A DNA stretch of 64,000 nt from positions 2,253,037 through 2,317,036 of the forward strand of contig JAAOMT010000436.1 of the NCBI GenBank assembly GCA_016748015.1, written 5' to 3'. The stretch is from Geosiphon pyriformis uo1. Its lineage: Eukaryota > Fungi > Glomeromycota. The notes beneath the pieces are model-generated. The model saw nothing but the letters and a program-made list of their open reading frames with translations. It did not search any database and had not been told where the DNA came from. A program made the position numbers and the translations under genes. Every line of letters begins with the position of its first letter. Positions within the stretch are counted from its first letter, which is position 1. Positions 6,005 through 55,136 of the stretch are shown here, piece after piece.

Positions 6005-6010
6005 CTTTTA

Positions 6011-18071: not shown

Positions 18072-18725
18072 TGTTACAGTTGAAACCCATAGTTTTTATT
18101 AGTTATCACATGTATTAGCCACTGATGTCATATAATTAGCCACCCTATTTTTAGATAGTGATTGTTGACCTGATCATTGACCTGATTGTTGACCTGGTTG
18201 TTGACCACTTTAGATAGCTATATAAGTGATGATTCCCTTAGCTGTAGAAAGACATGATCAAAGTAATGAAATAAACAATATCAATTACTTCCTCTCATAA
18301 TCGCTTATTCTCCTTTCCTTACCTTCAAGTATCTACTTGTTGGCATTCACATACCTTATCTTTTCCCCTTCTTGATTTGTATTTGTTAGAATTAGCCTGA
18401 GAAGCAATTGGCTTGCTCTTGTAATTCATTGAATAAAGAAACGATTGAAAAGTACAACAATACCTGTTATTGATTCTAAGAATTGCTGAGTTGAAGCATA
18501 GAATAATAGCAGTGGTGTTATCTTGTTGACAATCATGGACTATTCCTCTACCTTCAGATTTAAGAAAAGATTAGCGACTGTGATTTTTATGAGACTGATC
18601 ATGCACATTGAATTCCTACTTATTTAATTTGCTCCCTTATTGTAATTCCCTCTTTGTTTATTTCCATTACTATACAATACTGTTCTCCCTTGCTATCCAT
18701 TAGCTTGTTACTCCAACCTGTAACA
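18072..18725 (+). repeat. A3 5' LTR (TATA-like CTATATAAG near 18218-18226; PBS 18732-18748)
   Basis: TGTTACAG...TAACA followed by TAAAAG TGGTGCTCCCTGTAAGG. Confidence 0.95.
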
Positions 18726-18777
18726 TAAAAGTGGTGCTCCCTGTAAGGTTGTCAAAATTCACTTATTCTCTCATTGT

Positions 18778-20331
18778 ATGGGTGATTACTCATATCTGCC
18801 ACAGCAATCAGAAAAACACTTTGCAGCACACAACAGAAATGATCTAAATTTCATTGAACTTAATCCTCTGCCCTCCTGCTTGATCTGTTTCTCCCTTGAA
18901 GAACAATCCAGTAGACAATTCCAAGACTTTTGGAACTGGTTTCTGAATGAGCATTCAGCTGAAACCTACACAGCTTATACAACCTATTACTTTGACCAAG
19001 CTTATTTTGAAAACAACTTTGAAGAAAGAAACAACAGTATAAATCAACTCTTATATTCTGCAACTTTTGAACAACAGCCTCCTGATTTAGAATATCTGAA
19101 TTATCAAATTCACATTTGGATTGATGCCCATCAAGCAACTGAAACTCTCTTTAAAACAGAAGAAGAAAGTTACCAAACTGCCCCTGTTTTTGATCTTTTA
19201 TTAAGTGAATCAGACTCATCTACACAAACAGTTACCCCTGAACCAATGGCTAATAACCCCATGCAAGCAAACATTCTGGCCGCTCTCCAAAATATACAAA
19301 CTGCTCTAGGAAGAAGAAACAATATCCCACTACCAATATTTAGAGGTGATGCACAAGATCCAATTGAATGGTTGGATAATTTTGAGAGAGCTGCCACAGC
19401 CAACCAGTATGATGAAAAATACAAGTTCCAAATCGTTGGTGGCTACCTCCAAGGCTCTCCTGCTACCTGGTTCTTACAAGAAACAGATGCCAATGCTCAA
19501 CACAGAATAATCAGATGAACACCAATCAATGCTGGAGAAGAAAATACCTCTTTCACTACCTGATTTGAGGCCAAGTTCAAAACCCCAATATTAATATCCA
19601 AATGGCACATGGAATTGGAAAGAAGAACCCAAGGCCCTGGAGAAGTAGTGACTGAATATGCCAAGGCTATTAGAAAGCTAATCAAACATGTAGACTCTGG
19701 GAGAAATTGGACAGAAGAGCAGAAAATTCACTCCTTCACAAAAGGATTGAGAACTGATCTATCATATGCTCTTTGGCCCCTCCTGGCCCTGAAAGATAAC
19801 CCCACTATGGATATGGCCATTGAATTAGCACAAAGAATTAAAGATAACCAAAAGATGCACTTGGGATCCACACTACCAGTTTTTGCTCTTGCTCCTGTCA
19901 TGGCTCCTGCCCCTCAAATGGCTGCTACTTCTTTTGCCACTCACACTTAAGATCCAAATGAACAGTTAATAGACAGACTTACAGCAAATCTTGCCCAGTT
20001 ATTAGAACCCTTAGCCCAAGCAGTCAGAGAAAATCAACAACCACAAAGATCCAGATTTGAACCACGCTTCAATCAGCCCCAGCAACCACCTTATCAAAGA
20101 CAACAAAATCATGGCCCACCTGTATGCTATCACTGTGGATTAACTGGACACATTTCAAGAGATTGCAACAATCCTCCACTGCCTCCACCAGTCTCCAGAA
20201 ACAATGATGCTCAGAACAACAGTATCAACAACAACAATGTGCCCAACCAAAAACCCAATCATGCCAACATCAATTTCTTTGGAAAGGATTCCCTAGTTGA
20301 AGCCACTGTTTATCAGCATTTAAACTGGTAG
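18778..20331 (+). pseudogene. gag: A3 gag (premature stops at 19516, 19561, 19948)
   Basis: ORFs 18778..19518 and 19609..19950 are in one frame; CYHCGLTGHISRDC; natural stop TAG 20329-20331. Confidence 0.92.
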
Positions 20332-20371
20332 GCGCACCTCCAAAGGGTGAAAGTACAAGCCAACTAGAAGA
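20319..20371 (+). promoter_or_regulatory. Putative -1 programmed ribosomal frameshift signal (T TTA AAC plus downstream hairpin)
   Basis: Heptamer in gag phase, two codons before the gag stop; pol is in the -1 frame; present in all four A copies. Confidence 0.8.
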
Positions 20372-23012
20372 AAACCCCTTTTACACTTTTAACTTAACTG
20401 ATGATGACAATGACATGGATGAATTAGCAATCAACTCCTCTGAATTCACAAGAAAGAAGAAGAAAGCCAAAGTTGATTTCGTTTTAGACCCCAATAAAGC
20501 TTCTACATCAACTGCTGACAACAATGAGCCCCCAAAAGCCAAATTTTTCAAGAACCCTCCAAAGTTGGAACCCCCAGAAATAGTACAAAAATCCGGCCCC
20601 TATTCTGTTGTCAAAGACCTTATGGAAACCCCAGCACATATAACCTTTGGCCAATTGATAACCCATCCACAATTCAGAAAAGATCTTTGCAAATCTCTGA
20701 TTCCAAAGAAAAAGACACCCAAAACCAACAAACACTCTTGCCAAGCTGGACTTGCTGACAATAGCAATGTCACTCTTCTAATTTGTAAAGCCCAAGTGGC
20801 TGGCTATTTTATCGATTTGATCCTAGACAGTGGATCATCTGTTAGTGTTATTGCCAAACACTTTCTTGAAGCAATTGGCAGAAAAATTGATGAATCATCC
20901 ACACAACCAATGACCAATGTGCATGGTGATAAGAAAAAAGGGCTTGGCATAGCCAAAGCTATTCCTGTCTGCATCAATGGCATCAGCATTGAAACTGATA
21001 TGGAAGTGTCTAAAGCAAAAGAATACACCATCATTGTTGGCAATGAATGGCTCAAGAAAGCAAAGGCTTTGCTTAATTATGAACTCTGTGAACTAACCAT
21101 CAGATGTGGTGAAAAACCCATTGTGGTTAAGTATTGCCATTGGACAACTCCCCCAGTACCCAAGCAGAGTCCAGAAAAAAATGAATCAGATGAATCAGAT
21201 GATGAAGAAAGTAAGGAAGAAGAAAAACAAGAAAAACAAGAAGAAACTGCTGAACTTGCCTATACTATCTTCACTAGCAATGGCAAACCACTGGATAATG
21301 TCAAGGCAGATAAAGAAGGAATCATTGTCAATGGCAAGCTGATCTGCTGGCCTTATTATGACATGCTCAGAAGAACCTTTGACAGAAAGCCAGGCAAGAA
21401 AGCCAAATACAGTTATTGGTGGCATGGTCTTTGTGTCTGGTGCTGGTGCAACAAATTATTGTATTCTCCTAGCAATGAATGCATGTCCTGCCTGATCTAT
21501 TACAAAGATTAGGAACCAATCAGCTTGATACCCCGAGAGAAAATAAAAGAAGTCCAAAAGTCCTTTGAAAACGAACCACCTGAAATTCAATCACTGGTTG
21601 TAGAACAAAGAGAACCCTCTCCAGAAGAAAGAAAAGTAGACATTGAAAACCTGCTGGCTAGAAACAGCCCAGTTATCTCAAAAGAAGGTGAACCTCCTGG
21701 ATGTACACATGTGGTACAACACACTATCATCACCAGAGAAACTCACCCCATCCATTTGAAGCCCTATCAATCTAACAGGCACAATGATGAGTTTATAAAA
21801 AAGAAAATAACCCGAATGAAAACCCTTGGATTCATACAGGAAACCAAGAGTGAATGGGCATCCCCAGTTGTAGTAGTATCCAAGAAAGGAGGAATCCTAT
21901 GCTTTTGTGTTGACTATCGCCAATTAAATGCCATTACTGAAAGAAACATGTACCCACTTCCTAAGATTGATGCAATGCTAGACTAATTCCATGGTGCCGC
22001 TTTCTTCTCAACCATTGACTTAACTACTGGATTCTGGCAAGTAGAGATAGATCCAGAAAGCAGAAAGAAAACTGCCTTCATCACCAAGTATGGTATCTAC
22101 GAATTCACAGTCATGCCTTTTGGTCTCACAAATGCTCCTCCCACATTTCAATGCTTAATGGACAAAGTATTTGAATCAGTAAAAGAAAACTTTGTTCTAG
22201 TCTACTTGGACAACATAATGGTATATTCAAAAACCTGGGATGAACACCTTGAACATTTGCAAAAGGTTTTTGACCTCCTTAGAAATGCTGGTCTCAAGAT
22301 CAATCCAATCAAATCATTCTTTGGATGTCAATCCACCCAGTTCCTTGGCCATCTTATTACAAAAGATGGAATCTTCCCTGATCCAGCCAAAATTGAAAAA
22401 GTTCAAAACATTAGACAACCAATGAATGTTCATGAACTACGCTCTTTTCTTGGTTTGGCCTCTTATTATCGCAAGTTTGTCAAGAATTTCTCCAAAATCA
22501 CTGCTCCTCTCAATCAGCTACTTAGGAAAAACATCAATTATCACTGGGACACTCATCAACAAAAAGCATTTGAAATTCTGAAGGAAAAACTAGTTACAGA
22601 ACCCATCCTCATGCAACCTAATTTGGATCAATCTTTTATTTTCCACACTGATGCATCAGGCTATGGACTTGGTGCTGTTCTTTCCCAAAAAGATGAAGAT
22701 AACAGAGAACACGCCGTAGCATATGCCAGTAGAACTCTCACACCAGCAGAAAAGAACTACTCAGTTACTAAGCAGGAATGCTTAGCAGTAGTTTGGGCTA
22801 CCAGCTACTGGGACAAATATCTTAAGGGTGTGAAATTTTTGGTGGTAACAGATCACCAAGCTTTGGTTTGGCTATGCAACAAAAGAAACCTGGAACATAA
22901 ATGGATAACTCGCTGGATGATCTACTTGGATGAATTCGACTATGACATTCAATACCACAAAGAAGCTAATCATCAAAACGTCGACGCTCTCTCCAGACTT
23001 ACCATCCAGTGA
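20319..23012 (+). pseudogene. pol: A3 pol (PR LILDSGSS, acidic/Cys linker, RT, RNase H)
   Basis: ORFs 20415..21512, 21525..21986 and 22113..23012 share a frame; YLDD mutated to YLDN. Confidence 0.93.
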
Positions 23013-23077
23013 TAGTAAAACCCTTTCAAACCAAACCAACTTAATTATTTGTAACTCCCCCACAAACAAACACGATA

Positions 23078-24390
23078 ATGGACTTGGACAACTACTCTGT
23101 TTTAATGAAATTTTTAGGTAAAGGACAATACCTGCTGGACTATAATCGACAGCAAAGAGAACATTTGCGCAAACAATCAAATTTCTATTTGATTTGCCAG
23201 AACCAGTTATATAAAAGAAATAGAAAAGATCCTGACCGCCCCCAGAGAGTCATTAGATTTGAAGAAAGAGAAATTGTGATCAACAATATGCACACTGATC
23301 CATTAGCTGGACACTTTGGAAAAACAAAAACAATTCAGAAAACTTTAGCTCGCTATTATTGGTCTACTTTGGGAAAAGACATTGCTAAATACATCAAAAC
23401 CTGTGATACCTGCCAAAGAAGAGAAAAACCCAATCGCAAGGAAGATATCCATCCAATCTCTGTTGGTCAACCATTTGATAGAATTGGTATAGATGTTGTT
23501 GAACCTTTAACAGTAACTCCTAATGGCAACAGATACATTATCACAGCTACCAACTATCTTACAAAGTGGGTAGAAGCAAGAGCCACCTCAGATTAAACAG
23601 CAGTCTCAATTGCCAATTTTATTTATGAAGATATTATCTGTTACCACGGCTGCCCCAAAGAACTTTTATCTGATAGAGGAAGAGCTTTTCTCAGTACACT
23701 GGTTGAAGAATTTTGCAGAAAAATGGGAATATGTCATAAACTCTCTTCCCCTTATCACTCCAAACAAATGACCTAGTAGAACGTTTCAATAGAACACTAT
23801 GTGAAACCCTAGCCAAAACCAGTGAAGAAACCAACCTATGGAACAAAGTATTGCCTTCAGCCTTGTTTGCTTACAGAACTGTGAATCATAACATAACAAG
23901 TTATGAACCCTTTTATCTGCTCTATGGACAAATGGCAACTCTACCAATATAAATGGATATAGAAACAATACCTTTTGAAGAAATAACAATAGGAGATTAC
24001 AAAGACATTTTGCAAAGAAGACTTGGTACCATTTTTGACTCATTAGTAGAAGCATGGATAATTGCCTTTGAAAAGATAAAACAGATCCAAGAGAAGCTCA
24101 AAAAGAAAAAGACCTATAAAACACTTTCCTTAAGTGTTGGTAACTTAGTTTTGGAATACCGTTCAGACAGAGACAATGTCTATGGTGATAAATTCTCTAG
24201 CCAGTAGAAAGAACCCTTTATAGTCAACAAAGTTTTGAACAATGGTTCTTATATCTTACAAGATCAATATGGAACAATATTCAGTGATTGCCCTGTTCAT
24301 GGCACGCGACTCAAGAAATATCACAAACAACCTGATTGGTTACCTGTTGTGGTAATACTGACCCAAATGATCAGCAAAAATTAGATATAA
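23078..24390 (+). pseudogene. A3 integrase, separate ORF, no chromodomain
   Basis: Own ATG 65 nt after the RNase H stop; HHCC/DDE motifs; ends shortly after LKKYH. Confidence 0.92.
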
Positions 24391-24393
24391 ATA
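24386..24393 (+). promoter_or_regulatory. Candidate internal TATA box (TATAAATA) for ORF3
   Basis: 46 nt upstream of the ORF3 ATG; equivalent TATA at similar spacing in families B and C. Confidence 0.55.
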
Positions 24394-24431
24394 AATGCAC
24401 CATTCCCAAAACAAAGGTATCTTCAATTGAC

Positions 24432-25088
24432 ATGAACAATTATTTCCTGGATTAAAACATTCAAAATGCTTTCTATACTCTCCATGAATACTGGATCAAG
24501 AACTATCCAAATGCTACTCTGACTATCGAAAAACAAACCACTATAATAGACAACAGTGGAACTCACACTGTTATTAGACCAAAGAAAACAACTACCAGAA
24601 GAGAAAGAATTGGTGGCAAAATGGATAAATACCTACTGGAAAGCATAACAGCAGTGATACTTTCACCTTTCAGCACAATTGGAAAAACAATACAAGAAAT
24701 CTTGCCCATAGACAAAAACTTGTCATATGGAAGACAACTAGAACTCTATAGTCATCTTGGTGAAATCATAGAAGACATGAAGCTCATGAAGAAAACAACT
24801 TCAGAGATACAAGTGGAAATTTTGGGCATTATACGATTGGATGTCCCAAGAGTTTTGACCATTACAAAAAGAGCCAGAACTCTTATACAAAGATTTGGTC
24901 TCTTGGATACAAAGCTTATTTTGCCTCAAGTACTATATACTCTATCCACAAAAGACTTCAACAAACTAGTTAGTTTTGAGTTAGACAAAACCCTTCACAT
25001 AGACTATCCCATAAATAGTTTGATTTTGCCAGAGCTCAATCTTTTTGGAGAGGATGATGTTATGGTTGAAACACATAGTTTTTATTAA
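24432..25088 (+). pseudogene. A3 ORF3 (218 codons, one CAA>TAA stop at codon 8), running through the PPT into the 3' LTR
   Basis: MNNYFLD*N...; ORF 24621..25088; colinear with A4 ORF3. Confidence 0.85.
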
Positions 25089-25735
25089 TTATCACATGTA
25101 TTAGCCACTGATGTCATATAATTACCCACCCTATTTTTAGATAGTGATTGTTGACCTGATCAATGACCTGACCATTGACCTGATCATTGACCTGATTGTT
25201 GACCTGGTCGTTGACCATTTTAGATAGCTATATAAGTGATGATTCCCTTAGCTGTAGAAAGACATGATCAAAGTAACGAAATAAACAATATCAATTACTT
25301 CCTTTCATAATCGCTTATTCTCCTTTTCTTACCTTCAAGTATCTACTTGTTGGCATTCACATACCTTATCTTTTTCCCTTCTTGATTTGTATTTATTAGA
25401 ATTAGCCTGAGAAGCAATTGGTTTGCTCTTGTAATTCATTGAATAAAGAAATGATTGAAAAGTACAATGATACCTGTTATTGATTCTAAGAATTGCCAAG
25501 TTGAGGCATAGAATAATAGCAGTGGTGTTATCTTGTTGACAATCACAGACTATTTTTCTACCTTCAGATTTAAGAAAAGATTAGTGACTGTGATTTTTAT
25601 GAGACTGATCACACACATTGAATTCTTACTTATTCAATTTGCTCCCTTATTGTAATTCCTTCTTTGTTTATTTCCATCACCATACAATACTGTTCTCCCT
25701 TGCTATTCATTAGTTTGTTACTCCAACCCGTAACA
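25058..25735 (+). repeat. A3 3' LTR (PPT 25047-25057)
   Basis: TGTTATGG...TAACA. Confidence 0.95.
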
Positions 25736-26471
25736 TTACGATTGAAACCCATAGTTTTTATTAGTTATCACATGTATTAACCACTGATGTCATATAATTA
25801 GCCATTCTATTTTTAGATAGTGATTGTTGACCTGATCAATGACCTGACTGTTGACTTGATCATTAACCTGATCATTGACCTAATCAATGACCTGATTGTT
25901 GACCTGATCATTGACCTGATCATTAACCTGATCATTGATCTGGTCATTGACCACTTTAGATAGCTATATAAGCGATAATTCTCTTAGCTGTAGAAAGACA
26001 TGATCAAAGTAACAAAATAAACAATATCAATTACTTCCTCTTATAATTGTTTATTCCCCTTTCCTTACCTTTAAGTATCTACTTGTTGGCATTCACATAC
26101 CTTATTTTTTCTCCTTCTTGATTTGTATTTGTTAGAATTAGCCTGAGAAACAATTGGCTTGTTCTTGTAATTCATTGAATAAAGAAACAATTGAAAAGTA
26201 CAACGATACCTGTTATTGATTCTAAAAATCGCCAAGTTGAGGCATAGAATAATAGCAGTAGTGTTATTTTGTTGACAATCACGGACTATTCCTCTATCTT
26301 CAGATTTAAGAAAAGATTAGCGACTGTGATTTTTATGAAACTGATCACACACATTAAATTCCTACTTATTCAATTTGCTCCTTTATTGTAATTTCCTCTT
26401 TGTTTATTTCCATTATCATACAATACTGTTCTTCCTTACTATCCATTAGCTTGTTACTCTAACCTGTAACA
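25736..26471 (+). repeat. Third, tandem family A LTR lacking its first TG, with about 10 copies of a 12-bp repeat
   Basis: TTACGATTGAAACCC...TAACA directly abuts the previous LTR. Confidence 0.93.
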
Positions 26472-27622
26472 CTATGAATTGGTAATATTCTGAAGAAAAT
26501 ATAAGATTACTTGTAATGCTCTGATGTCATCCCATTTATTGGTTGCGATGGCTTTTTTCATGTTATTGAGTCATATTTGTATGTCATTTTCTTTGTTGGT
26601 AAATTTCTGGAGTTTTGCAATTGGTGCATATGCTATTGGTGCTAATAGTAGTTGTTATTGTAGTTGTGGTTACTATTGAACCTGTTGCTGAAGTAATAAT
26701 AATAGCTGTTATTGTTGCTGTTTAGCAATTGGTACAACTGGTAATAGATCTATTATGATTACTAGAAATAAGTTTTGGTAAACTATAGAGATGGAGTTTG
26801 GATTGTTTGGATTTGGCTGAGTTGGAACAATTAAGGTTTGAATTTCCAGGTTTCTTGAAATCAGATTTTGATAATTAAATTTCTGATTTCCATTTTTCTC
26901 TTCTTCCGATTTCATTATTTCTCAAAGACTACTGGTTCTGAAATCTGGTTGAAGTGGCAGTAATTGAAATTCTAATGACATTGATGATTGTGATTTAAAT
27001 TTCTCAAAATAATTGTCATAAGTTCCTAATAAATTGGCTTTTTCTTGGTTGTTTTGGATGGTTATTCTTGCTAACAGTGTTCTCATAGTTAAGATAAATG
27101 TGTCTGCTGATGTTATGTTGATAATACTTCCTAGTATATGGTAGTATAATGAATGAATAGAAAAAACTACTTTTGGTTTTTTCTAAGTAAGTAGTTGTAT
27201 TTTTTTTGATGTTTCTGTTGGTGTTTGTAGTTTTCTCTTGCCTTTTTCTATATAAGTAATAGGAAACATTTGTTGAGTGTGATTTTTAATTTCTTTGTTG
27301 ATTTCAGTGATGATTGATATAAAATTGTAATTTACTAGTAAGCTGGTATATTGAATTAATTCATTATAGAAATTTTCTCTTGCTAATTCTGTATTCACTA
27401 ATTTTCCTAAGAAATATTTAATTCTTTTATTAATGTAAAAGTTGAAAACTGATTCTACTAATAATTGGTTGTTGGTTAATTTCAAGTGTTAACAGTAGTA
27501 TTAAAATAAGAATTTGGTAAATCCTAAATGGTTTGTTCTTTTTCTTTCTAATTTTGCCACTTTTAAATAATTGTTATTAGTGCTGGTTTTTTGTAGGATT
27601 ATACTTTACAGAGAACACCAAA

Positions 27623-28498
27623 TGTTACAGATGATTACTTGGAGTCTCAAATCAAATAACAAACCTGTAATTTGGTGCTTAATAGCTGATCTTATTGGTA
27701 ATATTTAAAGGTTTTGGTCATCTAAAGATTTTGGTGAAGTTCTTTGTATAATAAACAGAGATTCAATAGTTGTTTTTAGTTGCCTCCCAGAATTGCAATT
27801 CCATTAATTTTTTTTCAGCATGATGACCAGCAATTTTCTAGTAAGCTATCCTCAAATTTGAATGTTTACCCTTATTTTTGGGTCTTTTATTAGTATTATA
27901 TTCTAATATTAGTACTCTACATATTAAATTTTTTTAATCAATTTAGTAAATAAACAACAAAAAAATAAAATAAAAATAAAAGAAAAAAAAATGAAAAAAT
28001 AAACTAAGACAAGAAAAGTTAGTATCCTGTCAATAGTTGTGATCAAGAGTTATTGGTCCAGTATAGTTAAGTATTAATTACTATCAACATGAAGTGTTAA
28101 TAGCAAAAGATGGATTATAATTAAAATAAGTATTTTATTAATATGAAATAAGAGGACTTGGTGAATTTAAACTAACAATTTTAACTTTGAAATTCTTTTT
28201 AAGAATTCTGTTCTTTTTGTTTTTAATACTACTGCTATATATACATAAATTTTGTTATACAAGATTTCTTGAATTTTTCAAATCTCTAGCCAGAAATTCT
28301 GAAATTCTTGAAATTCTATAATTTTTTGAAAGGAATCCTGAAATTCTGAAATCTTGTAATTCCTTTTACTGAAATCCTGTAATTCTGGAATCCTGTGATT
28401 TTTTTGAGAAGAATCTTGGAATTTTATTTTTATTGTGTTTTTTCTAATTGGCTAATTTATATACTAATATATATAATTTCTATATTCTATGAGTAATA
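27623..28498 (-). repeat. C0 5' LTR
   Basis: Homologous to 62804-63635 and 43473-44277. Confidence 0.88.
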
Positions 28499-29006
28499 TT
28501 ATTAATGATTTAAAATGTTTATAATAAAAGCATCTGTCCCAAAATAAAAATACAAAACAATAATTATTTTGAAAGAAATACAAAATGATTGATGACTATG
28601 TATAATAATTTTAGGTTTTAAATAAATTTTTTATTTTTCATAATATATAATAGTTATAAGAAAAAAAAATTGATTCTTGTTTGGCTGTCTTTTTCTAACT
28701 TTTACAACTACTTATTTTTATATATTTTTTTTGGTTTTACAAGATTGCTTTTTAATCATTTTGTTTTTGTTAGTTATTGCTTCACTATTTCTGTTATTGT
28801 TTTATTTTTCTATATTATTACTAGTTATTCTATGTTTTAACTAATTATTTTGTACTATAATATATTATCAAGTTTTGTATTATGTTATTTTGAGTTATTA
28901 TGCATTATTCTGTGTTTTTTTGCATTATTCTGTGTTATTTTATGTTATCACATTTTTGGTCATGTTTTTTCTATAACTTTAGATTGGTTTTTCTATTCAG
29001 GTAACA
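28499..29006 (-). repeat. Decayed family B LTR remnant (host of C0)
   Basis: Matches 45500-46001 (..ttttctattcaggtaaca end). Confidence 0.75.
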
Positions 29007-42032: not shown

Positions 42033-43124
42033 ATATTTTTGTATTGTATTATCCTAAATTATTATGTATTTTTTTGTGTTATTTTGCATTATTACATTTT
42101 TTTTATATTATTATGGTTTTTCCATAACTTTGAATGGGTCTTTCTATATAAGTAATATTATTCCTCTTTTTTAGAATTCAGCTCCTACAAAATTGTATTT
42201 TTATATAATATTCAATTATTTATTAAGTATTGTTTTTTGTAGATTTTCAAATTGTGAGTTTGTTATTTGCTTTATGCTGTTAACTGTAATAGTTTTTAGT
42301 ATACTATTTAGCAATACAACTGGACAGTATTTAAATATAGCATATAGTTAATACGTTGCTTTGTAGTATAATGTTAAATTGTTTTTTTTAACAAATTTTT
42401 TTACTTGTTTAAAAGCTTTTCTGTTGAATATTTATTTGTTAATATCTATGTATAATATTTGTAAGTCTAGTTTTTCACTAATTTTAAAGAATTAATACAC
42501 TAGTAGAAGTCTTTTTTTTCATACTTTGGAGTTTTTTGGTGTCTATTTTTTCATGTTAGAAAGTTTTAATCTCTTAAAAAAAAGCTTATTGGATTTTTTT
42601 TAGTATTAGAAATCACATACTCTTTTTTTTCTTTTTTTCTCATATATAAAAATAAAACATTCAGTTTTTTTTGAATTTTTGTCCATTTTTTTTTGTTCAT
42701 GTCTTTGTATCATATTTTTTTTCTATTAATTGTAATTTCTATTAATGTTGTGATTTGTTGAATTGCTTCAAATAATTGTTTTAAAAGTTTTAATATTTGA
42801 TTTGAAAAATCTATATTAAAAATACTATTGACTTTTTTTTGTTGTCTTAATCTTTATATATACTTAAATTTTCTTAATTAAATAATCATATATTGATTAT
42901 ATTTCAACAATAATAATTGGTTTTAAATCTTATGATATATTTTCTGGTTTAATTAATAAAATTTGTATTCTTAATTAAGATATAGATAACAATAATTCTT
43001 GATTTATATAATAAATTTTTAACTAATTTTCATGTGCTACTTTTTTTAAAATTCTGTTTTTCAATCTTAATTTGTAAGTTTTATTGTCTAAAACTTTATA
43101 TATGTAAAATAGTTTATCTTACTT

Positions 43125-43472
43125 TAGGTGGCTCTGGTTCTTAAGTTGTGGTAGACTTTTTGCATACAAACATTGATTGGTTTAGGTCATCTTTGGTGTG
43201 GCATTCTAATTCACATTTGGTCTCCGACTTTATTAGTAGGAGTACTACTAACACTTGTACTTATTTTATGAAGGCTTTGTATTACTGGCTTTTTATTACT
43301 GTTCATAAGCATTTGTATACCAAAAGTTATCCAAGTGTGGTATTTTTGTTTTGTGGAAATATTGAGGTTTCAGATCATGCTTTCTTCTGTTCATTTAATT
43401 CTGATGTTCATGTTCAGCTGCTGGACACTTATACAGCTGAATGGAGGGTAATTTCTGGTCTGTTTCACTTAG
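43125..43472 (+). mobile_element. LINE C-terminal fragment (zf-RVT-like Cys/His motif), interrupted by C1 and continuing at 63636
   Basis: FMKALYYWL....LY..SYPSVVFLFCGNIEVSDHAFFC resembles the C-terminal CCHC of non-LTR ORF2. Confidence 0.7.
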
Positions 43473-44919: not shown

Positions 44920-46001
44920 TGTTATAGGTAAACTTGGTGGATATAGGAAATGGTAATGTTTTGTGCTTTTAATTATTGATGACGCGTCTTTCACATAATT
45001 CTGTTGGCTTAGTCTTGATTATCAGTCTCTGAAGGTCTATTCCTGGATGTGAATTTACCCGTCAAGTTCTTTGGTTATAAGGCACAGAGTTTGTCTTTCG
45101 TCAATTGTAATGTTTTTTGTTAATGTAAGCTCTCTTTTCTGAGCTAACAAGCACAGTCATTAGAGTCTGGCATTGTCTTTTCACCCTTCTGGTAAGCTAA
45201 CAAGATAAAGTTAATATCCAAAACTTAGGGGAAGCTTCCCTTTTTTACCAGGCTATCACGAAGTCTATTCTCAGACAGTCAATTTTACTATGTTGCCACT
45301 CCACAAAAATAAGACAGAAAAAGAAAGAAAAAGAAAAAGAAAAGAAAAGAAAAGAGAGAAAAGATAAATTAGTATTGTCAATCACCATAATCAAGAGCGA
45401 TTGGTCCAAATCATTAATAGGTTTGAGGTGGTTATGCTAAGAGCATCTGTCTTAGAATGGAGATATAAGATAAGGGTTAATTCACGTAAATTCCACGAAG
45501 TTCGAGAACATCAATTCATGATTCTGATTTCTTTAATAATTGGTTTATTTCAGGAGATGAAAGAGAGAAGATAATAAAAGATGAAGGGGTATGGATATTT
45601 TAATTCTTGTCTAAAGGTTTGTATCTATTTGTCTGTCTTTTCTCACTTTTACAACTACTTGCTTTTATACATTCTTTTGGTTTTACAGGATTGCTTTCAA
45701 TTGTCTCACTATTGCTAACTATTGCTTTGTTGTTTCTGTTATTGCTTTGTTTTTCTATGTTATCGCTAGTTATCCTATGTTATAACACGTTATCTGACAT
45801 TATTACATGTTATTCTGTGTTATCCTGCATTATAACACATTATCCTATGTTATTGCACACTATTCTGTGTTATCCTGTATTATAACACGTTATCCTATGT
45901 TATAATGCATTATCCAATGTTATTGTGTGTTATTCTATGTTATGTCATATTTTGGTCACATTTCTTTATAACTTTGGATCAGTTTTTCTACTCGGGTAAC
46001 A
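44920..46001 (-). repeat. B1 3' LTR (about 1.08 kb)
   Basis: TGTTA...TAACA; near-identical to 54055-55136. Confidence 0.95.
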
Positions 46002-46015
46002 TTATCCCTCTCTTT

Positions 46016-46750
46016 TTAAAATTGAGCTCTTGCAAAACCATATGTATCTGTTATCGTGGCTTTGTTTATGTAATGTTCAATTGTTGCCTCGAGTATTGTC
46101 TTTTGTAGGTCTTTGAACTGTTGATTGGTTATTTGTCTTATGTTATTAACCATTATGGTTTTCATAGATCCATTCAGTAGTACATTTGGACAATGTTGAA
46201 AGGTGGCATATAGTTGGTATGCTGCTTTGTAATATAGGGTCAGGTTTTTTTTCCCTACAAATTTTTCTACTTGTTGTATTGCTTCTTTGTTGAATGTTTT
46301 CTGGCTGAAGTTTTTGTATGGTGTTTTCAAGTCAAGCTGTTTTTCAATTTTATAGAACCAATTAGCTGGAAAAAGTCTTTTTTTCCATTCCTGGGGATTG
46401 TCAAGTGTCCACTTCTCTGTTTTGGGGAGTTCAGTTTCACGAGCTAAAGCTTCTTTTATTTTTTTGAGCTTGGGGACCAAGTATCTTCTTTTGTAATCTT
46501 TTTCTTGTTCTTTGTCTCCTTCTTTTCCACCTCCCACCTGAAAACAATTTTTCCTCCAACATTGCCTTTCAGGTGGTGGGTAGGGGAAGGAATGTTTAGT
46601 TCTAATTGAACTCTTGTCCTCCCTTCTCCTGCTCTTATCTTTGTACCATATCTCTTTTTTATCAATTGTTATTTCTATTTGAGATGTCAATTTTTGAATT
46701 GTTTCAAATAATTGTTTAGATAATTTTAAAATTTGATCTGAAAGGTTCAT
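46016..46750 (-). CDS. B1 ORF3, intact 244-aa accessory protein of unknown function
   Basis: Open ATG-to-stop ORF between the integrase stop and the PPT; homologue in C1 and B0; TATATATA 46 nt upstream. Confidence 0.78.
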   Translation of the reverse strand: MNLSDQILKLSKQLFETIQKLTSQIEITIDKKEIWYKDKSRRREDKSSIRTKHSFPYPPPERQCWRKNCFQVGGGKEGDKEQEKDYKRRYLVPKLKKIKEALARETELPKTEKWTLDNPQEWKKRLFPANWFYKIEKQLDLKTPYKNFSQKTFNKEAIQQVEKFVGKKNLTLYYKAAYQLYATFQHCPNVLLNGSMKTIMVNNIRQITNQQFKDLQKTILEATIEHYINKATITDTYGFARAQF

Positions 46751-46830
46751 GTTGAAATTTCTATTGTTTCTTGCTGCTTTTTAGATGCTATATATATTTG
46801 AATTTCCCAATTTAATTTGCTGCCCATTGT

Positions 46831-48198
46831 CTACATTTCAATGACAATGATTGGTTCCAGATCTCATGGTATATCTTCTGGTCTGATTAATGAAATTTGT
46901 GTTCTTAGTTGAGGTACTGATAACAATGATTTTTGTTTTACATGATAAATTTTTAACCAATTTTCATGTGCTACTTTCTTTAAAATCCTGTCTTCCAATT
47001 ATAATTTGTAAGCTCTATTTCCTAATGCTTCATGTATGTGGAATAGATCATCCCACTTTGGGTCAAACTTTCCACTCCACTGTTTCTCAGCTTTTGTACG
47101 ATGTAACAGTACTTGGTTTCCAATCTTGAATTCCATTGGTTGTTCTGATAGGTGTTTATCATGTCTTTCTTTTTGTCATTTTTAAGTGTGACTAATATTG
47201 TCAGCTGCTGTTTTTCGATTGTTTTCCAATGTTTTCATTAGCTGGTATGTTCTTTGGTGTAAGGTAGCTTCAAAATTCTCTTCATTGATTGTTTTTGTTG
47301 GGTATGATGGTATTACTCGTTCAATTGGTAACGTAGCTTTTCTTCCATAAACTAGTTCAAATGGTGTGAACTGAGTCATATTTTGTTTTAATGTTCAGTA
47401 TGCAAAGAGTACAGAAGGTATAAATAAGTCCCATTCTTGTCTGTTTTCATGACTTATTTTTGCTAGTGCTTCACACAGTGTTCTGTTAAATTGTTCTATC
47501 AGCCCGTTCATTTGTGAGTGGTATAATGACAATAAGAGTTTCTTTATTCCAAACTGTTGGCTTAGTTCAATCAGTGTATTATTAATGAAGTGTGTTCCCT
47601 GATCAGATAATAATTCTTTCGGACATCCATGTCAGCAAATTAGGTCTTGATGCACAAATTTGGCTACTGTTTTGGCATCAGCCACTTGGATTGCTCTGGC
47701 TTCTGGTCATTTTGTAAGATAGTTTATGACTACAGCAATATAGCAATTTCCTTGGGATGTAATTGAAAGGGGCCCAACCAAATCAATCTCGATTCTATCA
47801 AATGGATTTCCAACTGGAATGGGTCAAAGTGGTTTTGTTGATCTTGCTCCTCCTTTTCGTTGGTATGCGTTATAATTGAGCACATATTCAAAAATGTCTT
47901 TATATATTGTTAGCCAATAGTATAAGTTTAGTGTTCTTTCGAGGGTAGCATTTTTGTTAAAGTATTCTGCAGTCAGATCTGAGTGCATGCTATATAGTAT
48001 AGTTTCTCTTTCACTGTTCTTGATTAGTCATTGTAAGTTGGGGTAATTTTGGCATTCTCGTCAATATAGTTGGTTGTCTTGAATAAAATAATTTCAGGCT
48101 TGTTTTCATATGGTACTCTGTTCCTGTTGAGATAATATCTCCTTAAAACATAGTGTCAATAGATACTGATGTAGTCATTGATAAGTGAGTGTGTCCAT
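46831..48198 (-). pseudogene. B1 integrase, separate ORF (MDTLTY...)
   Basis: IDLVGP, SDQG, TPFELVYG; ends DLEPIIVIEM*. Confidence 0.88.
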
Positions 48199-48208
48199 GG
48201 GTCTGAGA

Positions 48209-49654
48209 TTAGGTTTGTGGCATTCTTGACAAACTGTCGGCATTGGTGTTCTTGGATCCTTCCTTGTAATGGACTTCGAGTGGGAATTGTTGCAGATAAG
48301 TACTTCATCTTGCATATTTTCTTTCTAGTTGTGGATTGTTGAGTAACCAAATAAGTCCTTTGTGGTCAGTATATAGGTCAAATGGTTGACTGAAGTAATG
48401 TTTTCAAGTCTATATGGCCCAATAAATAGCAAGACATTCCAGATCTGTTGTGCTGTAATTTTTTTCTACTGGACTAGTGCTGTGACTAGCATAGACAACT
48501 GGGTGTTCTTTATTGTCTAGTCTTATCTGTAATAAGACTGCTTTTAGAGCATTTTTTGAGGCGTCCATAGTGACAATAAACTGTTTAGTGAAATCTGGAT
48601 AAATCAGGATTGGGGATGTGATCAATCACTACTTGAGATAGTCGAATGCTTTTTGTTGATCTTTCTTCCACAAGTACAGTACGTATTTGGACAACAATTG
48701 ATGGAGTGGTTTTGCAATGTTCAAAAAACCTTTGACAAATCGACGATAATATTTTGCCAATCTTAGAAATCCTCGTAATTCTCTAAAGTTGATTGGGGCT
48801 GGAAAATCCTTGACTTTTTGTACTTTATCTGGATCGGGTTTAACTCCATTCTTGCTGATTACATGTCCTAGGAATTTTAACTCAGTTTTTCCAAAGAAGC
48901 ACTTTTCAGGATTGAGTTTCAATCCAGCACTATAAAGGCATTTGAAGATTTGTTGTAGGTAGAGCAGATAGTCATCGAATGTTTTGGAGAACACATTTGT
49001 GTCATCTAGATAGACTACTACTAATTTCCAAAGAATTCCTTTGTATACTACATCCATCAGGCATTGAAATATGGCAGGAGCATTACAAAGTCCAAAAGGC
49101 ATTACATTAAACTCAAAGTTTCTATCTCAAGTGGTAAACGCTGTTTTTCCTTTGTTTTTGGGGTCCATTTCAACTTGCCAGTAACCACTTGCTAAATTTA
49201 ATAACAAGAACCATTTCTTTTTCTCTAAATTGTCCAGAATTTCCTGGATAAGGGGAGTGAGATAACTATCTCCTTGTGTAATGCTATTTAATTTTTGATA
49301 ATTTATGCAGAATTGTACTTTTCCATTTTTCTTGGTGACCAAAACTACTGGAGAAGACCAAGAGCTTAACAATTCTTTGATTAGGCTGTTATTAAGTATT
49401 TATTGCACTTCTTGCTTAATTAAGTTATTACCAGATGGGGGTACATGGTAAGCTCGTTGCTTAATCGGTCGAGCATCTCCCGTATCAATCTGATGCTTTA
49501 TAATGTTGGTGCATCTGAACTCATTTTCACTGGCAAAGACATTGGCATACGGATTCAGAAGGACTTTGAATTGCATTTGTTGCAGAATACTTAAATTTCC
49601 TAAATTCAATTTATTGATCTCTTTTGGTGTGAACAAGTAACTTTTTTTTGGCAA
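48209..49654 (-). pseudogene. pol: B1 RT-RNase H
   Basis: WSSPVVLV, MPFGLCNAP, YLDD, TMDAS, NADSLSR. Confidence 0.92.
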
Positions 49655-50034
49655 ATTTCATACTTGTAAGGTAATGTTACAGAATAAGAATAATTGTGTG
49701 AAATTTGGAATGGACTGGGGTTTTTCAGAATTTTGAATATCTACGAATATGAAACTGATAAGGGTCCCTTCGGGAATTTCAATGACATCTTCTGTTAGGT
49801 TGTGGATGGGGATTTTGAAGTGTTTATGGGCTTTGGCTAGTAGGTATAGATTAGCAACATCAGCTAGAGAACAGATTTTAGGACTGGCTTCAAATAACAG
49901 GGCTTGATCTTGGATCTTTTAATTTATCTTGAGGATGTATTGTCAGTATAGAGGAATGGAAATAATGATGTCAGTGTTTATAAATTCTATTTGGTCACTG
50001 TTTTCTTCCATGAAATTAACTGGTACATTTCCTC

Positions 50035-50425
50035 TTCCACTTGATCCAAACCCATTGATTCCTCGGACAGTGAGGCCTAACTCTTTTCGGGTTGTTACCA
50101 GGATTAATTGGGGTATTTTGACTAGGGGTAGGAAGATAGCTTGGGCAATCTTTTCTTGTGATTCTATTTTGTAGAGTCTATCCAAATTGTCCTGTAGCAT
50201 CACGATAATGTTTCCCATGTAACTGGCATCAATGATTCCTTCTTTTACATCGATTTTTTTCTTGGCTAGACTAGATCGAGAGGCAACTTGTATTATTGTA
50301 CTAACAAAAATTTCTAACACTATCTTAAGATTTATTTTTACAAAGGAATGTGGGACTATAATAATAGATGATTGTCTGGGGTATCATAGGTCAAAACTGG
50401 CATCAGTGTCATGCACTCTTTTGGG
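50035..50425 (-). pseudogene. B1 trimeric dUTPase domain between PR and RT
   Basis: Motifs I-V: DASFDL, RSSLA, GIIDASYMG, KIAQ, RGINGFGSSG. Confidence 0.92.
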
Positions 50426-51469
50426 GCAGATTTTTTCTTCGTTTTCACTGTACCATTTTAGCTCTAGTTCTTTGAATAGATCAGGATATGCGAAATACTG
50501 TTCTGTTTCAGTATCCTCAGTTGGATCTTGAAATGACATGTTCTCAGTGATCAATACCTCTTTTTCAGGCTCAGATAGTTCAGTGATTGGAAACAGTATT
50601 CTTGGAGGCAGATTAAACATGAGATCACATTCATCACAGTACTGGAAGTGACAGAGGATCAAACAGTGATCACACAGTTTGGTATTCAAATCAGCCAACC
50701 TTTGCTTCTGTTTTTCATAAGTTGGAGCCAATTTCTGATATCAGTTCTGAAATGTGTCTGGGTCATCTGTGAAAAAATCATCCTCGGGGTAGTCGGGTCC
50801 ATTATATTTGGGCGTCCAAGAGTTGTTTTTGATTTCTCGTATTTCTTCAGACATAGCACCTTTGGCCTTGGTGCTTGCCATTCTCCAGATTTTATGATTA
50901 TCATGTAGATAACTGTCCAGTCTGTTGAGTGCTTGTTTCCAAGTATCCTTGATGAGGGTTCCCTTTTGTACCCAATCATTGATTAATATGGTGTATTGAC
51001 AAATCTTGTTGCATGTTTCTCTTCTGCCAGACATATTATTCCAAAGTTCTTTATCTGGCAGGATTTTGCCACATGTGAGGCATGGCGTCCCACTTGCCTT
51101 ATCGTTTTGGTCATCCAAATCTTTTCAGTAAACAAGGTCTGCAATAGTATTTGGTGGCAGTGGGCCATTCTTCATTGTTCCCAATACATGCGCCTATAGT
51201 GGATAGTTTTTTTCCACAATCAACACATATTAGTTTTGGGGGTTGGTAAAATAAGTTTTTTTAGTCCGAGGTTATGTATCCTAGTGATGACAATTGGGGT
51301 TCTTCTTCAGCTCTGCCTTTTTTTTTTCTTTCCAGGTTGGTGGTGGGGGTAGTTCAGTTTGATAATCATCCACCCATGAAACCTGATAGGTCTCGATGGT
51401 TGGTAGCATTGATGTGTCTTCAAATTCAATAAGGGGTTCCTCAGTACATTGGGTTTTAAAGTGTCTACA

Positions 51470-51835
51470 CGTAGTTGAGACTTGAGAATGCTGTCTGTTG
51501 AATGTGAGTTGAAGTTTTTGGGTGTTCCAGTTGAGAGTAGCATTGGCTTTTGACAATCAATTGTTTTCTACTAGAGCTTGATATTAAGTAGCTTCTATGA
51601 TGAGTACTTTGGTAGGGATTTGGATTCTATTAATCTTGAAGGGGAAGTTGTCAATTTCTCCTATTGGGGTTTTTGTGTTTCCATCTGCTGTAATAATCCA
51701 AGCAGTAGCAGCACAGTCTACTTGGCAACCTAGTTGATTTATGAGCTGCTTCGTGATTATGCTACCAGCTGATCTGCTATTCAGGATTAATTTAATGTTT
51801 ATTTCTCTGACTCTGGCATCAGTGTATAGGGCCAT
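51470..51835 (-). pseudogene. B1 aspartic protease (active site decayed to LNSR)
   Basis: IKLILNSRSAGSII...IITADG.TKTPIGEI. Confidence 0.85.
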
Positions 51836-51899
51836 TATTGGTTTATTCTGATTAATGACTGCTCCACTAAAAAGGCTATGGGTGTTTAAATTATTGATG

Positions 51900-53992
51900 T
51901 CAAAAGAAAATATGGTGGCTAGGATGGTGCCTTCAGTAATAGTGGCTGGTAAGATATTGCTTTTTGTTTGCTTGGAAGGTTAGGAGATTCGTTCTATATC
52001 CTCTCCTTTCACAGGTGTAGATTTATCAAAACCTTGGTCTTCTATAAGACCGAGATAGGAAGCTTGATTTGGGTATCCAGTTGGTGTTGATTGAAATTGG
52101 GCAGGACTGCAAGAGATTGGTCGAGACAGTCCACTGTTGGTTTGCACCTAATTGTTGTTGGGATTCCTTCATCCTTGATTATAGTTTATAGCTCGAGATC
52201 TGGATGGGCTGTAAGGGGAAGTTTGATAGTGAGAGATTGTTTGTGTCATTGGTGGTAGTTGATAATAATTCTGGGGCAGTGGTTGAGTGTACAGAACTTG
52301 TTGTGCATATAGGGGTGGTTGATTCTGAAGTATAGAATATTGGGGTACCATGTTTTGCTGATATCTGGATTGCTGGTATGGGTTTCTTTGATTTTGGTTC
52401 ATGATCTTTTTTTTGCAGTCATGAGCGATGTGTTCAGATTTCTGGTAGTAGTAATAGTTGTGGGGATCGGATCTCCAAGATTGTTGCTGTTGCTAACAGT
52501 TCTGTTGCTGTGGATATCTGCTGTTGTTGTTATTTTCTCTCTGTTGGGGTGGTTGGTAAGTTCCTGTAGTTCTGGCTAAGAATTCCTCAATTTTCTGAGT
52601 TAGTTTTTCACTCAATTGGGTTATTTTTGCATTGATGTCAGAGGTTCCATTAATGGCTAAATTAACAGCTTGGGTATAGTTCACTTCTTGTTCTGCAAAC
52701 TCAAAATCACAAGCAAAAGTGACGGCGTCTTGTAAACTGGTCAGATGGCAGGGTCTTACAGATCTTAGAATACTACTCCACAATCTTTTAATGAATTGAT
52801 TAAGAACTTGTACCGCAGTGTAGTAGTCCCTTTCGATAACTAATATTTGACGCAGAATTTGATTGAATCGTCCGAGATAAGTAGTTACTGCTTCATGATC
52901 TTTTTATTTAATTATGCTGAATTGATTCTGCAATTGGATTAACATATTGGGGTCACAGAAGTATTGCAGAAATGCGAGTTTAAACTCAGTGAAGAAGGTA
53001 GGCTTCTCTGCCAGACTCTGGTATCACGAATTGGTGGTTCTGGTCAGAAAAAATGGCAGTGCCTAAATTGTGTGGTTATTGTTTCAACAGTTGGCAGTAA
53101 TTGCTTTCTCAGTGTTCACGATCCAAGAATATGTGTTATCTTTTTCACCAGAGAATTTTTCCAATTTAGCAATATCCTGGTAAGTCATGATCCAGTTAAT
53201 GGGTGGAGTATTACTGATTATGTTTAAAGGGATTGGTGTCTGCGTATTCGAGTGTTCTCCAGGTGCTAATGCTGGTTGCTTTTCTTTGTCACTTGAACCA
53301 ATAGGTTGTAAGATAGCTGTTTCTTCTATCAGGGGAGATGCTGATTCTGCTAAGTTTTGTGCTGGTGGCTGTTCCCAAGTTGATGGGTTTCCTTCTGTTT
53401 GACCGGCCACTGGAGTAAGATTTCCAAACAGCAATCTGTATTCTCCTAGTGATTTGGTCCAACTGTGTTGATTCCAAGGGTGTGGATTTTTAGAAGTTTG
53501 TGGTGTTTCCAACTGGGTTTCCGGGGGTGGGTTGAATACAATTCTACTTTGGGGTGTCTGATGGTATAATGGAGTTGTTGGAGAGAGAATTCTTGGTTTT
53601 TTGTTGACCGTGGACTTGGCTTGGGCAGTTATGGGGTTGTTAGATTTGTTTTCGTATTCCTCAGGGTTGGATTTTACTGGTTGTTATACTTGAGAGAATT
53701 GTTGTGCCACGTAATATTTAATGTCTATATCAATTATGCATAGAGTTTCAGTGATTGCTCAGGTAGTCGTGGCTGTTGAGTATCCTAGTAAGCTTTAATG
53801 GATTTGTTCTCTAAGTCTTCCTGTATTAGTTGTGTGGCCTAACAAGCAGTCAATTTTTGCATTGATATAGTTACAAAAATTACTTTCTGTGTAAGTGGTT
53901 TCTGCTAGTATTCCTAGGTCTTTTCGAAAGTATTAAAATAGTGCTTTTCCATATGAGGAGTGGTCCTTTCCTATTGTTCCAATAGTTGCCAC
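51900..53992 (-). pseudogene. gag: B1 gag, in frame with PR, with a long N-terminal extension
   Basis: IAKLEKFSGE capsid-like start; decayed CCHC near 52415-52450; Gln/Pro-rich tail. Confidence 0.82.
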
Positions 53993-54054
53993 TTTTATGT
54001 ATTTTTGGGGGTGCTCTGTTTCTGTGGATTTATAACCTTACAGGAAGCACCAAA

Positions 54055-55136
54055 TGTTACGGGTAAACTTGGTGGATATGGGAAATGATAATGTTTGGTG
54101 CTCTCAATTATTGATAACACATCTTCCACGTAATTCTGTTGGCTTAGCTTTGATTATCAGTCTCTGAAGATCTATTTTTGGATGTGAATTTACCCATTGA
54201 GTTCTTTGGTTATAAGGCACAGAGTTTGTCTTTCGTTGATTGCAACGTTTTTTGTAAATGTGAGCTCTCTTCTCTGAGCTAATAAGCACAGTTGTTAGGG
54301 TCTGGCATTGTCTTTTTGCCCTTCTAATAAGCTAACAAGATAAAGTTAATATCCAAAACTTAGAGGAAGCTTCCCTCTTTTATCAGACTATCACAAAGTC
54401 TATTCTCAGACAGTCAATTTTACTATGTTGCTGCTCCACAAAAATAAGACAGAAAAAGAAAAAAAAAGAAAAAGAAAAAAAAAGAAAAGAGAGAAAAGAT
54501 AAATTAGTATTGTCAATTGCTGTGATCAAGAGCAATTGGTCCAAATTGTTAATAGGTTCGAGATGGTTATGCTAAAAGCATCTATCCTAGAACAGAGGTA
54601 CAAGACAAGGGTTAATTCACGTAAATTTCACAAAGTTCAAGAACATCAATTCGTGATTCTGATTTCTTTAATAATTGGTTTATTTCAAGAGATGAAAGAG
54701 GGAAGATAATAAAAGATGAAAGGGTATGGATATTTTAATTCTTGTCTAAAAGTTTGTATCTATCTGTCTGTCTTTTCTCACTTTTACAACTACTTGTTTT
54801 TATACATTCTTTTGGTTTTACAGGATTGCTTTCAATTGTTTCGCTATCGCTAGCTATTGCTTTGTTGTTTTTGTTATTGCTTTGTTTTTCTACGTTATCG
54901 CTAGTTATCCTATATTATAACACGTTATCTGACATTATTACATATTATTCTGTGTTATCCTGCATTATAACACATTATCCTATATTATTGCATGCTATTT
55001 TGTGTTATCCTGTATTATAACACGTTATCCTATGTTATAATGTATTATTCAACATTATTGCACATTATTCTGTGTTATGTCACGTTTTGGTTACATTTCT
55101 TCATAACTTTGGATCGGTTTTTCTACTCGGATAACA
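54055..55136 (-). repeat. B1 5' LTR
   Basis: TGTTA...TAACA, then TT + TGGTGCTTCCTGTAAGG. Confidence 0.95.

Follow-up and report, generated by a model that had tools for sequence, protein, structure and literature searches.

Ty3/gypsy-type retrotransposons of Glomeromycota with integrase in a separate reading frame

In textbook long terminal repeat (LTR) retroelements, integrase enters the particle as part of Gag-Pol. What, then, should be made of elements in which pol ends before integrase begins? A 64,000-nucleotide (nt) stretch of the Geosiphon pyriformis uo1 genome (contig JAAOMT010000436.1, positions 2,253,037 to 2,317,036), hereafter the window, raises this question. It has a GC content of 33%, consists almost entirely of nested LTR retrotransposons, and holds six element copies with coding regions, designated A, A', B, B', C and D (element coordinates refer to the window). 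Our reading, to which we lean only slightly, is that they represent a widespread Ty3/gypsy-type group of Glomeromycota in which a separate integrase would be made by restart after the pol stop, and a further open reading frame, ORF3, would be expressed from an internal TATA promoter.

The split between pol and integrase

In each of the six copies the pol frame closes only a few codons from the last RNase H motif, and integrase follows in a frame of its own, as the initial annotation of the locus had described. In element A (18072-25735, plus strand; an LTR pair and coding regions), pol (20319-23012) encodes protease, an acidic/Cys-rich linker, reverse transcriptase (RT) and RNase H, and ends in a TGA at 23010, just past the last RNase H motif. 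After an A/C-rich spacer of 65 nt (23013-23077) comes the stand-alone integrase (23078-24384), with a YPYY-like N-terminus, HHCC finger, DDE core and GPF motif and no chromodomain; this copy carries one frameshift plus stops. The other copies lie on the minus strand. Pol stop and integrase ATG are at 10691 and 10623 in A' (7854-15540; A family, with an N gap at 8736-9416), at 37115 and 37045 in B (34422-42032; a sub-family of A), at 48211 and 48198 in C (44920-55136), and near 56594 and at 56555 in D (43475-63637; an older family, split by C near the start of the D ORF3). B' (1-6652) extends beyond the window; its pol stop is at 1817 and its integrase start, at 1749, has changed from ATG to ATT. 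The spacers thus measure 65 nt in A, A' and B', 67 nt in B, 10 nt in C and about 36 nt in D, and integrase opens at a homologous Met in every copy except B'.

Every window copy is decayed, with stops and frameshifts and with LTR pairs that are 91-95% identical. The split could then be decay, or an assembly error, in dead copies of an ordinary element with protease, RT, RNase H and integrase in one frame. Relatives contradict this explanation. Since our protein search for integrase was limited by length, we also scanned metagenome DNA without a length filter and kept the best 80 loci (L001-L080), 46 of which contain both the RNase H end and the integrase start; contig ends truncate the remaining 34. 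Three loci were scored by hand, namely L019 and L035, in which we took a stop within the extension of pol as decay, and L075, where the integrase start was reassigned. The initial annotation had named a continuous protease-to-integrase frame without a conserved ORF3 as one outcome that would speak against it; among these relatives, 0/46 scorable junctions are fused, and ORF3 is present in 30/43 loci (see below). Loci with open pol and integrase frames, such as L001, L009, L028 and L039, are split at the same site. Because none of the scorable relatives is fused, the split layout is almost certainly programmed, and we attach next to no probability to decay or misassembly.

Annotated proteins fit this picture. 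A search with the A' integrase against proteins of 220-702 aa gave 963 matches, of which 120 were listed; 95 of the 120 start with M-D/E/N, and Met1 is invariant in 79 aligned full-length homologs that share 39-67% identity. Named matches include Rhizophagus irregularis and R. clarus. The lack of a chromodomain, also claimed earlier, was borne out: Pfam finds the integrase zinc finger and core and no chromodomain in the window pieces scanned, and PF00385 is found in 0/120 listed homologs. Viral contigs gave three weak, partial integrase matches, which were not used. A search for long proteins (768-2190 aa) gave 718 matches; the best of the 120 listed are three named gene models from arbuscular mycorrhizal (AM) fungi, and the remainder are 31-45% identical. 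Two of these models (P0256, P0257) do link RT/RNase H to integrase, as a decayed fused element would suggest, but they omit the RNase H end and the integrase N-terminus, so that the joins look like predicted introns bridging the junction; the third model lacks RT.

After removal of four near-duplicates, 42 non-redundant junctions were available. Thirteen of them overlap or abut (-20 to +2 nt; ATGA in four, TAATG in one), 27 have spacers of 24-162 nt, and two more have spacers of 365 and 727 nt. In several loci Pol extends 216-343 aa beyond RNase H (L028, at about 4350-5163; L039, L069, L031, L037, L058, L015, L043, L011 and L013), and in L061 by 585 aa. The extension combines an acidic linker with a conserved domain rich in Cys and His, which matches nothing in Pfam and is likely zinc-binding.

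How integrase might be made

In A and B, gag and pol lie in separate frames (-1). The A gag (18778-20331; Retrotrans_gag and zf-CCHC, with decay stops in frame) overlaps the beginning of pol, and the overlap contains a TTTAAAC heptamer (20319-20325) followed by a predicted hairpin, a combination seen in 4/4 A/B copies; the heptamer is likely the -1 frameshift site into pol. In the decayed copies C and D gag and protease share one frame, and a dUTPase overlooked in the initial annotation is located between protease and RT (about 50350-50036 in C, Pfam E 1e-12; about 58806-58462 in D, 6e-18). The four-cistron layout proposed for the whole clade therefore describes A and B, with gag and pol in separate frames, and does not describe C and D. 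Cys-rich segments precede the dUTPase in both C and D, and the protease-RT interval of A/B holds an acidic stretch and a Cys/Trp-rich motif without a Pfam match (21380-21500, plus strand).

An A is present at position -3 in 45/63 integrase starts against 124/385 internal Met codons (Fisher p=6e-9), and in 38/51 starts that do not overlap pol, against a spacer A content of 38%. By these comparisons the start codon and its context are under selection. We see about an even chance that integrase is made by reinitiation on the genomic RNA. Such an RNA would yield Gag and Gag-Pol (by -1 frameshifting in A/B, from one frame in C/D), and the post-termination 40S subunit would reach the integrase AUG directly at overlaps or would scan a short, unstructured and AUG-free spacer (65 nt in A); in one subgroup a structure of about 42 nt, described below, likely helps to place the ribosome. 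Integrase unfused to Gag would then have to be carried into the particle through binding to RNA, RT or Gag, and there would be fewer integrase than RT molecules. Stop/start overlaps characterise the termination-reinitiation sites of victoriviruses, hypoviruses and SART1, and for LINE-1 reinitiation over a 63-nt spacer has been proposed (PMC5972666), close to the 65 nt of A. The group resembles victoriviruses, CHV1, SART1 and LINE-1 in the ATGA/TAATG overlaps of 5/42 junctions, with near-overlaps in eight more, and resembles the fungal viruses, as that source presents them, in having no UGGGA motif (PMC5972666). The spacers of A, A' and B lack structure (z +0.3 to +0.5; +0.4 in A), and in A and A' they are also free of ATG. 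The known reinitiation systems differ, in that they are RNA viruses or non-LTR elements whose downstream frame encodes the polymerase, whereas the downstream frame here is the integrase of an LTR element, spacers are variable and the mechanism is inferred.

Several points weigh against reinitiation. Spacers of 24 nt or more occur in 29/42 junctions, including those of 365 and 727 nt, and most exceed the known viral tolerance; for pneumoviruses the limit is a spacer of about 29 nt (PMC5972666). Since ribosomes in A/B must frameshift to arrive at the pol stop, the yield of integrase would be very low. ATG is depleted in the spacers (7 against 16.9 expected), but GTA is equally so (5 against 14.4), and the depletion is therefore not specific. 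Scanning would be impeded, not aided, by a stable structure in the spacer, and the window elements are without the motif. The calicivirus UGGGA motif, expected of a termination upstream ribosome-binding site (TURBS), occurs in only 2/41 junctions, and reinitiation of the TURBS type was rejected.

Could integrase be part of a normal Pol-integrase polyprotein after all, if ribosomes read through the stop after RNase H or shift frame there? The frameshift-like gag/pol site of A/B and five in-frame junctions with a single stop (L008, L012, L057, L074, L075) point that way, but the spacers, from -20 to 727 nt long, fall into the three frames 12/17/13 times, and A and A' hold an additional stop in the integrase frame upstream of the ATG. 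Given these frames and extra stops, neither readthrough nor a fixed frameshift is likely. Nor would such a route require an invariant Met1 or a selected A at -3, and we consider it very improbable. Recoding, as suggested initially, can be retained for the -1 site of A/B only; with a random spacer frame it does not extend to integrase.

A more serious alternative, though one we still consider unlikely, is that integrase is translated from its own subgenomic mRNA, produced by splicing or from an internal promoter that has no TATA box and lies in the RNase H region or the spacer. Foamy viruses express Pol from a subgenomic mRNA. The strong context of the integrase AUG would suit ordinary cap-dependent scanning, the group apparently has an internal promoter for ORF3, and the problem of low yield after frameshifting would disappear. 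Long spacers (365, 727 nt) and pyrimidine tracts exist, in L050 with a tract followed by TAG, but a conserved splice acceptor was not found: YAG is absent from 11/26 spacers and any AG from five, and near the end of RNase H, 64% is the most that any AG position reaches. Nor was a TATA excess found upstream of integrase (9/56 against 5.2 expected, P=0.07). The 13/42 stop/start overlaps would also be left unexplained.

The third option brings in the RNA structure. A search with an RNA model places a motif of about 42 nt in 25/80 loci, in all of them just 5' of the integrase AUG and nowhere else (L013, positions 597-634; L005, L011, L014-L016, L019, L022, L028, L033, L035, L037-L039, L043, L044, L056, L058, L064, L068, L069, L072 and L078-L080). 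It has two stacked stems, a 5' bulge of about 11 nt and an 8-nt loop; a possible 2-bp pairing between bulge and loop is nearly invariant and hence without covariation support. Over 22 aligned motifs 95.8% of cells are paired, and 8/12 pairs show two-sided changes (41 cells). None of 500 shuffles scored as high, and slid controls pair at 30-53%; these controls overstate significance because the structure was drawn from the same, related sequences. The stem ends 2 nt from the AUG in 13/25 cases (range -1 to 31). An Rfam 15 scan of 20/25 motif loci (E<=1) gave no match on the motif and one weak MIR397 match elsewhere in L038. The motif occurs in two branches of the integrase tree, mostly where Pol has the long C-terminal extension, and its model has no match in the window; because of this absence it supports separate control of integrase in the group, and not a mechanism in A-D.

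Such a structure, with A/U-rich spacers elsewhere, could permit internal ribosome entry independent of pol termination. Its position entirely 3' of the pol stop, at a near-fixed distance from the AUG, its covarying stems and its almost invariant bulge and loop letters are what one would look for. It is missing, however, from 55/80 loci (some of which are too truncated to reveal it) and from every copy in the window, the folding of single motif sequences does not surpass that of shuffles (z -1.9 to +0.1), and the structure might just as well act as a repressor hairpin, bind a protein or be cleaved. We regard internal entry as improbable and continue to favour reinitiation.

The ORF3 gene

ORF3 lies before the 3' LTR. 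In A it spans 24432-25088 (218 codons, with one early stop), crosses the polypurine tract (PPT) and terminates within the 3' LTR; a TATA box, TATAAATA, at 24386-24393 precedes its ATG by 46 nt, and the same offset is found in B and C, in agreement with the arrangement first noted. ORF3 is open in B (35689-35033), spans 46750-46016 in C and starts at 395 in B'; in D it was identified by eye only and is not among the profile matches. The dN/dS ratios are 0.28 for A-B (209 codons), 0.22 for A-B' and 0.24 for B-B', values by which ORF3 is a real gene under purifying selection.

ORF3 homologs downstream of integrase in other loci form one family. A profile of 25 sequences, made with the window excluded, aligns with the A/B alignment (hhalign E 9e-5) and the C ORF3 (E 3e-4) at modest scores, and in a six-frame search it ranks the window ORF3 regions first. 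Among loci with at least 480 nt past the integrase stop, ORF3 was found in 30/43, comprising the 25 in the profile and five found by it. The gene is dispensable in part of the group, because PPT and LTR directly follow the integrase stop in L047, L049, L070 and L075. Of the 120 listed homologs of the B ORF3, 119 are from Geosiphon pyriformis, and one is the window protein itself. A Geosiphon ORF3 profile reached 27 proteins among representatives at 50% identity.

A TATAWAW motif occurs 20-100 nt upstream of ORF3 in 15/25 cases, against 2.4 in shuffles, and 0/300 shuffles reach 15; in control windows of integrase-coding sequence it occurs in 20/276 (7%). ORF3 is thus probably transcribed from its own internal TATA promoter. 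Against this stand four loci (L014, L031, L043, L044) in which the TATA lies within integrase coding sequence and could be driven by the protein, and in which the ORF3 ATG abuts the integrase stop, which suggests coupling instead. The accessory gene with an internal promoter that the initial annotation had envisaged is supported by these statistics, namely purifying selection, absence from a subgroup and the upstream TATA. We also observed that the ORF3 ATG overlaps or abuts the integrase stop (-8 to +5 nt) in L014, L031, L033, L043 and L044, where the two may be translationally coupled.

Family members are 117-244 aa long and have no 19-residue hydrophobic stretch above 1.32; across 33 downstream ORFs no transmembrane segment was found (maximum 19-residue hydropathy 0.16-1.55). 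The predicted structure of the L014 relative is compact and all-helical (pLDDT 95), while a shallow Geosiphon alignment gave a pLDDT of 42. With the L014 model, Foldseek returned nothing at E<=0.001 from PDB or BFVD, and the best VIA Z was 4.7 (rmsd 5.5, 117 aligned), results that establish neither a new fold nor a lack of relatives; a search of the ESM Atlas gave no usable match, and Pfam gave only single weak matches on the 25 ORF3s (best E 0.013). We tentatively suggest that ORF3, as a soluble all-helical protein, might have a regulatory role, directed at the nucleic acid of the element itself or at host silencing. A DUF1016 identity, considered as a lead, was unsupported (DUF1016_N at 0.11 only).

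The position of ORF3 is occupied differently in some loci. L041 has a 314-aa ORF there (1945-2889) that looks Nudix-like by eye, and L009 an unrelated 132-aa ORF (6546-6944). In L015, L019, L037 and L038 it holds pyrimidine-rich stretches that may code on the opposite strand.

Families, relationships and place among known elements

The elements have two TG...CA LTRs, a short target-site duplication (TSD), a primer-binding site (PBS), a PPT and the order gag-protease-RT-RNase H-integrase with gypsy-type domains, as do Ty3/gypsy elements (Metaviridae, e.g. yeast Ty3), and the best PDB match of the integrase profile is Ty3-G Gag-Pol (E 3e-53). They have neither the integrase at the Pol C-terminus of canonical elements nor the C-terminal integrase chromodomain of chromoviruses. 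Canonical Ty3/gypsy elements encode integrase in one AP-RT-RH-INT polyprotein, and most fungal gypsy elements are chromoviruses (PMC3248453); here integrase is separate, ORF3 is added and the integrase of the window type is without a chromodomain.

The trees were built with mostly unnamed proteins as outgroups and without GyDB or Repbase reference elements. In a FastTree integrase tree of 306 sequences, all 186 stand-alone and locus integrases group with five long proteins (support 0.95), which are the three gene models, P0260 and P0300. In a FastTree of RT-RNase H with 138 sequences, all 33 split elements group with only two joined gene models (support 0.91). An IQ-TREE quick tree of 48 rows implies two changes of state, with the fused P0260 inside the group, and one of 31 rows implies a single change (support 56). 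With P0260 inside the group in 2/4 trees, one origin of the split layout is neither shown nor rejected, which must be counted against our reading of the group. P0260 has a fused RT-RNase H-integrase with a short linker and no YPYY-like region, and may be a secondary re-fusion. Four proteins with integrase before RT fall outside the group. Gmr1-like elements carry integrase upstream of RT; here it is downstream of RNase H.

Read by eye against the description in PMC2836005, the integrases have a YPYY motif before the HHCC finger and a GPY/F motif. The aromatic YPYY motif, of about 40 aa, is described before HHCC in Ginger1 transposases and in Athila/Tat-related gypsy groups, including Gypsy-1-I_RO (PMC2836005). 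The window elements share with YPYY gypsy integrases (Athila/Tat, Cer1, Gypsy-1-I_RO, DGLT-A1) and with Ginger1 the aromatic motif, GPY/F, TGTNR termini and 4-bp TSDs (PMC2836005). As in Ginger1 transposase, integrase starts at its own Met just before the YPYY motif. The differences from Ginger1 are the direct LTRs, gag and RT, the lack of terminal inverted repeats and of an OTU/Ulp1 tail, and AT-rich rather than CCGG targets. In the FastTree integrase tree the OTU/Ulp1-bearing P0261 and P0337 branch near the group, and three fused YPYY-type elements are closer.

Other known elements match in single traits. The fungal gypsy element PosPlaTy3-5 has a dUTPase between protease and RT, as do C and D, and a figure legend of the same source shows "additional ORFs" to which it assigns no function (PMC2864245). 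Elements of this type have one fused Gag-Pol ORF or two ORFs, and the parts of PMC2864245 drawn on here do not mention a separate integrase. Plant Tat elements carry an additional RNase H, not integrase, in a separate ORF (PMC10508981). Our elements bear some resemblance to env-bearing errantiviruses and complex retroviruses. These carry a third gene between pol and the 3' LTR; ORF3 has this position and is dispensable in part of the group. Unlike env, ORF3 is all-helical and without a transmembrane segment, and the evidence favours a promoter over a spliced env message. The likeness to complex retroviruses put forward at the outset is an analogy.

In the literature searched, which excluded Repbase, GyDB, subscription journals and supplements, we found no description of a gypsy lineage with separate integrase or of an RNA motif before integrase. 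The accounts of transposable elements in AM fungi consulted here stay at superfamily level, and the main text of PMC11952901 never uses the word integrase. We conclude that the layout is a genuine and conserved variant of Ty3/gypsy organisation and one that, within the scope of these searches, has not been described. In Geosiphon pyriformis LTR sequences account for 41.2% of the genome (PMC11952901), and among the named homologs are proteins of Geosiphon, Rhizophagus, Cetraspora and Entrophospora; for these reasons the group is likely a sizeable part of AM-fungal genomes, in whose annotation its integrase and ORF3 appear as hypothetical genes or are spanned by predicted introns. A large and successful group that makes integrase separately must use other routes of translation and packaging, and the RNA structure before integrase and the ORF3 protein are new, concrete objects for biochemistry. 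The link between Ginger1 and gypsy is an open question (PMC2836005), and the integrase of this group begins at a motif common to Ginger1 transposases. It is conceivable, although we think it doubtful, that the group is a polycistronic LTR lineage with a free-standing Ginger1-like integrase gene translated inside the genomic RNA (in one branch by way of a ribosome-positioning RNA of about 42 nt), untethered packaging and a promoter-driven accessory of new fold. If true, the step between RT-plus-transposase chimeras and integrase-only DNA transposons would have a living model in this lineage.

The number of families in the window had to be revised. The paired LTRs lie at 18072-18725 and 25058-25735 in A, 41403-42032 and 34422-35063 in B, and 54055-55136 and 44920-46001 (1,082 bp each) in C, and the shared TGTTA...TAACA ends were confirmed in all three pairs. 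The A and B LTRs, which had been taken to have unrelated interiors, can be aligned from end to end, at 82-87% identity when gaps are left out and 65-73% when they are counted, and over 7,749 alignment columns the two elements as a whole agree at 82.9%. Only for the C LTR is the score against A and B at the level of shuffled sequence. A and B belong to a single family whose LTRs are homologous, the earlier count of three independent families is wrong, and the window families are A/B, C and D. The shared PBS, beginning with TGGTGC, holds in all six copies (18732-18749 in A), 6 nt past the LTR in A/B and 2 nt past it in C/D. The 4-bp TSDs likewise hold, with CTAT/CTAT in A (upstream of the 5' LTR and beyond an extra third LTR), CTAA/CTAA in A' and ATAT/ATAT in B; those of C (ACAT/ATAT) and D (CCAA/CTAA) have one mismatch each. 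No tRNA genes were found within the window. The group has at least three different PBS sequences (one in L011, L013, L014, L019, L028, L031, L037 and L061, another in L003 and L009, and that of the window), from which it follows that more than one primer tRNA is likely used.

The third LTR of A (25736-26471) follows its 3' LTR in tandem, so that the two span 25058-26471 on the plus strand; it has lost its first TG and has an expanded internal decamer repeat, and the TSD encloses the entire three-LTR unit. Older D-like and C-like elements at 15541-18071, 26472-28503, 33688-34416 and 42037-43145 were the insertion targets of A and B, resulting in multilayer nesting. Between the elements, fragments of a host gene with two ZPR1 jelly-roll domains are present at 30567-31793 on the minus strand.

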